Assembly: GCF_013315695.1 (NCBI RefSeq)
Contig: NZ_CP054353.1
Length of the DNA stretch: 64,000 bases
Strand: one strand, 5' to 3'
DNA from: Escherichia coli
GTDB lineage: Bacteria > Pseudomonadota > Gammaproteobacteria > Enterobacterales > Enterobacteriaceae
Below are positions 3,224 to 4,649 of this stretch, one piece after another; the first letter of the stretch is position 1; every line of letters starts with the position of its first letter. The notes under the pieces are model-generated. The model worked only from the letters and a program-made list of their open reading frames with translations. It ran no database searches and was not told the origin of the DNA. Position numbers and translations under genes: made by a program.

Positions 3224-3257
3224 GCCGGACTCCTATATTTATAATTTTAATTGTTTA

Positions 3258-3274
3258 CGTAATTGTGCATTACG
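3258..3274. promoter_or_regulatory. Perfect palindrome cgtaat-N5-attacg upstream of lgoT (candidate GntR-type operator)
   Basis: Read directly: cgtaattgtgcattacg, about 35-50 bp upstream of lgoT start, containing the GT..AC core typical of GntR/FadR-type sites. Confidence 0.35.
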
Positions 3275-3325
3275 CAAGGTTGACATTAACGGCAGGTTAA
3301 AGTTTTAGGACTTTACTACCGCTCA

Positions 3326-4520
3326 GGAAGGTGCGAACAAGTTCCTGATATGAGATCATCATATTCATCCGGAGCGCATCCCAGAGGGACATCATGAGCC
3401 ATCAACTCACCTTCGCCGATAGTGAATTCAGCACTAAGCGCCGTCAGACCCGAAAAGAGATTTTCCTCTCCCGCATGGAGCAGATTCTGCCATGGCAGAA
3501 TATGACCGCTGTCATCGAGCCGTTTTATCCCAAGGCGGGCAATGGCCGACGGCCCTATCCGCTGGAGACCATGCTGCGTATTCACTGCATGCAGCATTGG
3601 TACAACCTGAGCGACGGTGCCATGGAAGATGCCCTGTACGAAATCGCCTCCATGCGCCTGTTTGCCCGATTATCCCTGGATAGCGCCCTGCCGGATCGCA
3701 CCACCATCATGAATTTCCGCCACCTGCTCGAGCAGCATCAACTGGCCCGTCAATTGTTCAAGACCATCAATCGCTGGCTGGCCGAAGCAGGCGTCATGAT
3801 GACCCAAGGCACTTTGGTGGATGCCACCATCATTGAGGCACCCAGCTCTACCAAGAACAAAGAGCAGCAACGCGATCCGGAGATGCATCAGACCAAGAAA
3901 GGCAATCAGTGGCACTTTGGCATGAAGGCCCACATTGGTGTCGATGCCAAGAGTGGCCTGACCCACAGCCTAGTCACCACCGCGGCCAACGAGCATGACC
4001 TCAATCAGCTGGGTAATCTGCTTCATGGAGAGGAGCAATTTGTCTCAGCCGATGCCGGCTACCAAGGAGCGCCACAGCGCGAGGAGCTGGCCGAGGTGGA
4101 TGTGGACTGGCTGATCGCCGAGCGTCCCGGCAAGGTAAAAACCTTGAAGCAGCATCCGCGCAAGAACAAAACGGCCATCAACATCGAATACATGAAAGCC
4201 AGCATCCGTGCCAAGGTAGAGCACCCGTTTCGCATCATCAAGCGGCAGTTCGGCTTCGTGAAAGCCAGATACAAGGGGCTGCTGAAAAACGATAACCAAC
4301 TGGCGATGTTATTCACCCTGGCCAACCTGTTTCGGGTGGACCAAATGATACGTCAGTGGGAGAGATCTCACTAAAAACTGGGGATAACGCCTTAAATGGC
4401 GAAGAAACGGTCTAAATAGGCTGATTCAAGGCATTTACGGGAGAAAAAATCGGCTCAAACATGAAGAAATGAAATGACTGAGTCAGCCGAGAAGAATTTC
4501 CCCGCTTATTCGCACCTTCC
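3326..4520 (+). mobile_element. IS5 insertion sequence, complete (1195 bp)
   Basis: Terminal 16-bp inverted repeats ggaaggtgcgaacaag (left) and cttattcgcaccttcc (right, one mismatch); encloses IS5 transposase ORF. Confidence 0.95.
3394..4374 (+). CDS. insH: IS5 transposase
   Basis: 326-aa [38 protein letters not shown]... matching IS5 InsH; DDE transposase. Confidence 0.95.
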
Positions 4521-4649
4521 CTTGTGAGTCCATTAAAACCCGATTTAAAACATTTTTATGCGTGTGTTTTCACAAAACAGATTTTCCGTTCCGCTGCCAT
4601 TTTTCATTTTCATTGATATCTAAGGCAACAAAAAATGGAGAGCCGAATC

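Follow-up and report, generated by a model that had tools for sequence, protein, structure and literature searches.

An IS5-type element in place of the L-galactonate regulator gene lgoR in natural Escherichia coli, with later deletions of neighboring genes beside the same copy

The DNA analyzed here, a stretch of 64,000 nucleotides from Escherichia coli (the window), carries a complete IS5-type insertion sequence (IS) where K-12 has lgoR, the regulator gene of the L-galactonate pathway, and lgoR itself is gone. The same two junctions recur in a small share of complete E. coli genomes, and in three carriers more DNA has been lost on one side of the same IS copy. We consider it probable, at roughly 0.7, that one old IS-mediated deletion allele underlies these genomes and arose by transposase-made adjacent deletion, with the lgo pathway then non-inducible and the strains L-galactonate-negative.

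Gene order in K-12 strain MC4100 is tsr, lgoT (minus strand), lgoR (minus strand, 915 bp), lgoD (plus strand) and opgB. The original prediction was thus right to expect a regulator gene of about 0.9 kb between lgoT and lgoD, two genes that in K-12 are not parted by the window's flanks alone. Alignment of these flanks to K-12, which had been proposed as a check, located both deletion endpoints: the match runs free of gaps up to position 4226 of the K-12 locus (L001:4226) and resumes at L001:5263, with about 99% identity on both sides. The intervening 1036 bp of K-12 sequence (L001:4227-5262) are missing and the IS is in their place. They amount to the entire lgoR coding sequence, 112 bp past its stop codon and 9 bp before its ATG. 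The right endpoint is within the lgoR ribosome-binding site, 9 bp ahead of the ATG, and the left one is at CTCA (3322-3325). The 4-mers next to the element do differ as predicted, and both CTCA and CTTG are unaltered K-12 sequence with no target duplication. The right junction can be placed to within 1 bp, and the left one shows no microhomology. Searches of the window with K-12 LgoR (tblastn) and with the K-12 lgoR region (blastn) gave no match, which bears out the claim that the stretch has no lgoR ORF and rules out relocation of the gene within the window. A simple IS insertion is likewise excluded, because 1036 bp of K-12 sequence are gone and the flanking 4-mers do not form a duplication.

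To the left of the element lie tsr (149-1813, plus strand) and lgoT (1862-3223, minus strand), the latter an intact gene for an L-galactonate MFS transporter of 453 aa with a GTG start. Its identification draws on the list of open reading frames, on the annotation of genomes 100% identical here and on an NCBIfam match to the D-galactonate transporter subfamily that is below the cut-off. Relative to K-12, tsr shows in-frame length differences of 3 bp (1634-1637) and 9 bp (1709-1717), the 3-bp difference varying among carriers. To the right are lgoD (4650-5672, plus strand), an intact L-galactonate oxidoreductase gene of 340 aa according to the annotation of identical or collinear genomes, and opgB (5809-8100, minus strand). 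Annotation of collinear genomes starts lgoD at 4650, and the list of open reading frames starts it at an upstream ATG at 4635. The window is collinear with the annotation of strain AR_0069, every coordinate being equal. Spacing between lgoT and lgoD is 1426 bp, 1195 bp of which are IS, so the element was correctly described as filling nearly the whole intergenic space.

Upstream of lgoT, 102 bp (3224-3325, ending in CTCA) are kept of the 214-bp gap between lgoT and lgoR in K-12, and they correspond to L001:4125-4226 with one mismatch. Within this segment is a perfect inverted repeat, CGTAAT-TGTGC-ATTACG (3258-3274), that could be a putative operator of a GntR-type regulator (LgoR, ExuR or UxuR). 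On the other side of the IS, 129 of the 138 bp of the divergent lgoR-lgoD control region are retained (4521-4649). This segment begins with CTTG (4521-4524), aligns to K-12 from L001:5263 onward at 99% and contains a Crp-like site, TGCGTGTGTTTTCACA (4559-4574, 2 mismatches). A scan of 3150-4750 for consensus-like promoters returned a single site (plus strand, 3217-3245), no excess over shuffled sequence, and no lgoT promoter can therefore be assigned to the retained 102 bp. The site, which overlaps the lgoT start, consists of TTTCCA, a 17-nt spacer and TATAAT (10 of 12 matches) and is oriented toward the IS transposase gene 80 bp away. For the nmpC copy of IS5 in K-12, activity is due to external read-through (PMC11677980); read-through from 3217-3245 could similarly bear on why the IS copy in the window kept deleting.

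The element itself (3326-4520, plus strand) is 1195 bp long and belongs to the IS5 type, with the NCBI name ISKpn26 family. IS5 is recognized as an element of about 1.2 kb with 16-bp imperfect terminal repeats (GGAAGGTGCGAAYAAG), and the window element has this form. Its left (GGAAGGTGCGAACAAG, 3326-3341, plus strand) and right (GGAAGGTGCGAATAAG, 4505-4520, minus strand) terminal inverted repeats agree at 15 of 16 positions; the 64-kb window holds no further match, and 0.01 matches would be expected by chance. The single long ORF (3394-4374, plus strand, in the direction of lgoD) is an intact transposase gene of the InsH/Ins5A type, 326 aa, that scores 366.8 bits against the NCBIfam model of IS5-family DDE transposases (NF033581, cut-off 140); 321 of its 326 residues are the same in K-12 InsH1. 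These results uphold the original description of an intact IS5 with 16-bp inverted repeats and an InsH ORF, with the qualification that the element is an isoform of K-12 IS5. DNA identity to K-12 IS5A is 94.6%, with the differences clustered in the first 300 bp (85-89% identical) and merely 85% identity to IS5 over the 5' 100 bp. The 3' 177 bp (4344-4520, plus strand), the 'IB' segment with A-tracts and an IHF site, TCAA (4426-4429), face lgoD and match K-12 IS5A at 100% identity with no mismatch. RefSeq labels the same sequence 'IS5-like element ISKpn26 family transposase'. By sequence comparison, then, the name IS5 is correct at the family level and the window element appears to be an isoform, given the 94.6% identity to IS5A and the ISKpn26 name used by NCBI.

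The 4-bp target duplication of IS5 (consensus YTAR) is absent from the window copy, which has CTCA on its left and CTTG on its right, because of the accompanying 1036-bp deletion; its absence bears on the history of this copy and not on the identity of the element. IS5A of MG1655 (L009:1456-2650, in prophage CP4-6) likewise lacks a duplication, with flanks CTCC and ATAA in IS orientation, so mismatched flanks are not rare among old IS5 copies. Outside E. coli, at least 37 contigs of a draft genome of Shimwellia pseudoproteus DSM 3038 (loci L016-L052) stop at the left end of an IS of exactly the window's subtype, a sign of massive expansion of the element in that species. Further copies of the subtype occur in Edwardsiella anguillarum, Klebsiella michiganensis and others.

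Among 5426 complete E. coli genomes surveyed, about 76-77 (~1.4%) carry the full structure at approximately 100% identity; taken singly, the left junction occurs in 72 genomes and the right one in 73. The sources of the carriers are humans, pigs, dogs, pigeons, frogs, cattle and water from several continents; among the carriers are enterotoxigenic reference strains with serotypes O25, O27 and O169. More than 70 complete genomes, each assembled independently, share the same junctions at 100% identity; an assembly artefact or a chance resemblance is very hard to credit, and we reject both. Sharing of the same two junctions by some 76-77 genomes points to one old, inherited event, and the IS copies at the site differ from the window by 0-2 substitutions (one copy is frameshifted), consistent with a single and not very recent origin. 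Outside the carriers lgoR is close to universal: a match to it is present in 5234 of the 5426 genomes and missing from 192, a number compatible with, and no proof of, its absence from all ~77 carriers.

Flanking divergence places the allele in a recombinational mosaic. In strain F5505-C1 (L006) the junctions are identical to those of the window, but beyond window positions 2811 and 4772 the flanks are as divergent as those of K-12 (97.6% identity over 200-2810 and 98.4% over 4773-7400), so that identity is confined to about 515 bp left and 250 bp right of the IS. At the site in strain J6 (hit H27, NZ_CP195973.1, 4763435-4766873), the IS5 copy is itself interrupted by an IS4-like ISVsa5 in a nested insertion. 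A search of all E. coli genomes with L001:4227-5262 also revealed that in about 806 of the 5234 genomes with a match, UTI89 and O111 strains among them, the lgoR allele is just 80-81% identical to that of K-12 over query positions 141-1034. The lgoT 5' region was matched in only 4501 genomes; together, these figures signify two deeply divergent E. coli haplotypes at the locus.

Adjacent deletion by replicative intramolecular transposition is classical for IS1 and IS903; to our knowledge, the mechanism has not been dissected for IS5 itself. Its signature, host DNA missing next to an IS end with the IS itself complete, is found in the founder allele and in three further cases. Each of these three carriers keeps one founder junction and an intact 1195-bp IS and has a new junction at the opposite end. 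In CE0021a, 263 bp more are lost on the lgoT side, which truncates lgoT and leaves GAGATAA against the IS. ET776 has lost 3161 bp more, including lgoT and tsr, up to a junction at tsr codon 3 that reads ACCATGTTAA (ATGTTAA) and then the IS. In B771 the loss is on the other side, where the IS is followed directly by TTAAGTCTG (TTAAGTC) and a further 229 bp, reaching into lgoD, are missing together with the lgoD start. Two of the three new junctions are YTAR (TTAA), a motif that occupies 0.8% of local positions (p about 2e-4 for at least two of three). We scanned genomes of other species for exact matches to the window's IS subtype and sampled 80 copies, whose left flanks were YTAR in 58, CTTG in one, ATAA in one and CTCA in none. 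The third new junction, ATAA, is a near-target seen once in that sample. A target consensus of C(A/T)A(G/A) has been reported for IS5 (PMC11894529). The deletions also fit a report that IS5 transposes chiefly by copy/paste and leaves the donor copy in place (PMC11677980). Because two of the three new junctions are YTAR, the junction sequences support the view that the later deletions are one-sided adjacent deletions made by the transposase.

What the loss of lgoR would mean for the pathway depends on the role of its product. L-galactonate is reported to induce all three lgo genes, and YjjM to be the regulator of the pathway (bioRxiv 10.64898/2026.05.20.726482); lgoR and lgoT are described as an lgoRT operon divergent from lgoD (PMC5934670). 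According to PMC3588905, with reference to Reed et al. (2006), growth on L-galactonate requires yjjM/lgoR; that LgoR acts positively is thus described in secondary citations of that work. Since lgoR is described as essential on L-galactonate and lgoT as co-transcribed with it, LgoR loss would more likely abolish induction than cause derepression. The original prediction had expected lgoT and lgoD to be deregulated, an expectation that on the same grounds finds no support if derepression is meant. Moreover, lgoT is now separated by 1.2 kb of IS from the surviving lgoR promoter region at 4521-4649. Deprived of LgoR, and with lgoT split from the lgoR promoter, the lgo pathway would be non-inducible and the strains presumably L-galactonate-negative. 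Most carriers, like the window, retain both lgoT and lgoD intact, and this alone is no indication of a dead pathway; the three later losses that truncate lgoT or lgoD would fit a pathway no longer protected by selection.

The proposed founding event begins with insertion of an IS5-type element in or beside lgoR. DNA between one or both IS ends and nearby sites would then have been lost through intramolecular copy/paste transposition, the donor copy being kept, to yield an IS bordered by K-12 position 4226 (CTCA) on the left and 5263 (CTTG) on the right and lacking 1036 bp that included all of lgoR. In the most economical order, the IS would first have inserted at CTTG in the lgoR leader, and about 1040 bp to its left, as far as CTCA, would then have been deleted. 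CTTG is preferred as the primary site because it occurs once, and CTCA never, in the 80 sampled flanks, and because an IS5-like copy in K-12 lomR (L008:1812-3007), 96.5% identical to the window IS, is bounded by a CTTG/CTTG duplication. An internal insertion followed by two deletions is another, less economical, route. The resulting allele would have been inherited and moved by recombination into its present share of E. coli genomes, and in individual strains the same IS copy would later have deleted lgoT, lgoT with tsr, or the start of lgoD. Neither founder junction is a canonical YTAR target, so for at least one founding step either the target was a poor one or the transposase was not responsible; nine canonical YTAR sites lie within the deleted 1036 bp and none served as an endpoint. 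A precursor with a simple insertion at either junction and lgoR retained would document the first step, and none of the 5426 genomes carries one. This search used two synthetic junctions, the IS right end joined to CTCACAAAA... and ...CCTCCTTG joined to the IS left end, at a threshold of at least 80% query coverage. With no precursor at hand, we infer the order and number of the founding steps.

Two other origins deserve consideration. Homologous recombination between two directly oriented IS5 copies, at CTCA and at CTTG, could have removed lgoR together with one IS; it would leave exactly one IS with unlike flanks, as is observed, and many carriers have several copies of the window's IS, in up to 40 places. 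However, this origin requires that the IS inserted twice, independently, within 1 kb and each time at a non-canonical target (CTCA in none and CTTG in one of the 80 sampled flanks) despite the nine YTAR sites available in the deleted segment, and neither single insertion is present among the 5426 genomes. The three later deletions are, furthermore, one-sided and end at a single IS. We therefore hold inter-IS recombination to be unlikely and favor IS-mediated adjacent deletion. The original prediction had named both in place of a simple insertion; its rejection of simple insertion stands, and of its two options the one-sided deletions favor adjacent deletion over inter-IS recombination. A one-step event, in which the two IS ends were joined to targets separated by 1036 bp, or in which repair of an insertion cost the intervening DNA, would account both for the lack of a precursor allele and for the fact that neither flank resembles half of a normal duplication. 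We found no IS5 precedent for such an event in the literature searched and know of none documented, and stepwise one-sided deletion is seen directly at the same IS copy, which makes a one-step origin a decidedly doubtful one.

A different question is whether the IS took over some control of lgoD. The IB segment, or read-through from the transposase gene, might drive lgoD in the absence of LgoR and leave it constitutively on. In favor, the IB segment is 100% identical to that of K-12 IS5 and adjoins the lgoD control region, the transposase promoter is distal, and lgoD is intact in most carriers. Transposase gene and lgoD are both on the plus strand with the IB 3' end proximal to lgoD, the geometry of all orientation-specific IS5 activations, namely those of glpFK, fucAO and flhDC (PMC2753651, PMC11894529), and IB activates the lac promoter as well (PMC2753651). 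On the other hand, the IB effect depends on helical phase (PMC2753651); the 5' 100 bp of the isoform are just 85% identical to IS5; lgoT is on the wrong side of the IS to gain; and carrier B771 lacks the lgoD start. The fusion promoter of the fucAO type requires a Crp site immediately outside the left end of the IS. A search of 3200-3345 for TGTGA-N6-TCACA with up to 3 mismatches gave no match, which rules out a promoter of that type. On balance, we think that activation of lgoD by the IS is improbable. The extended version, in which the IS acts as a replacement regulator, IB makes lgoD constitutive and independent of L-galactonate, and retention and recombinational spread of the allele reflect gut selection, would seem to us a similarly slim prospect. 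If true, the spread across divergent E. coli backgrounds would parallel the repeated IS hits in lgoR during mouse colonization.

A single adjacent-deletion allele thus remains the preferred reading, and its mechanism is of a known kind: this is ordinary transposon-made gene loss and no new kind of system. Its value lies in being a clean natural example in which one IS removes a regulator gene and then keeps eroding the neighbors; public genomes preserve the founder allele as well as the three one-sided deletions that came later. The predicted phenotype, failure to use L-galactonate in ~1.4% of sequenced E. coli, extends to several enterotoxigenic reference strains. The replacement allele and its derivative series appear to be undescribed in the literature searched. 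They link a natural allele to the repeated lgoR hits that accompany adaptation of E. coli to the mouse gut. IS insertions in lgoR arose in MG1655 evolving in the mouse gut (PMC6363074), laboratory evolution gave rise to an IS186 insertion in yjjM (PMC3588905), and yjjM is listed as a mutational target in gut-colonizing E. coli (PMC12332998). Given that lgoR is repeatedly hit by IS in gut and laboratory evolution, its IS-made loss in nature is unsurprising and, by analogy, may be adaptive.

Comparison with known systems sets the allele in context. With K-12 IS5, the window element shares its 1195-bp length, 16-bp terminal repeats and 3' 177 bp; it differs in that this copy is without a 4-bp target duplication and that NCBI files its transposase under the ISKpn26 name. 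As in adjacent deletions of the IS1 and IS903 type, one IS end stays in place, the other is joined to a site close by and the intervening DNA disappears, and in the derivatives two of the three new junctions lie at the element's preferred target; unlike those cases, the mechanism here is read from natural alleles and neither founder junction is canonical. The present arrangement resembles IS5 activation of glpFK, fucAO and flhDC (Zhang and Saier 2009; Zhou et al. 2025) in having IS5 upstream of a catabolic gene and pointing the same way, with IB proximal, and the fucAO insertion also disables a divergent operon. Those are simple insertions at CTAA or CTAG with duplications, selected for activation, whereas in the window the regulator gene is deleted, the upstream Crp site is absent and activation would be by analogy only. 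The lgoR hits of experimental evolution, finally, are recent insertions in a K-12 background, whereas the window presents a full gene replacement fixed in natural lineages.
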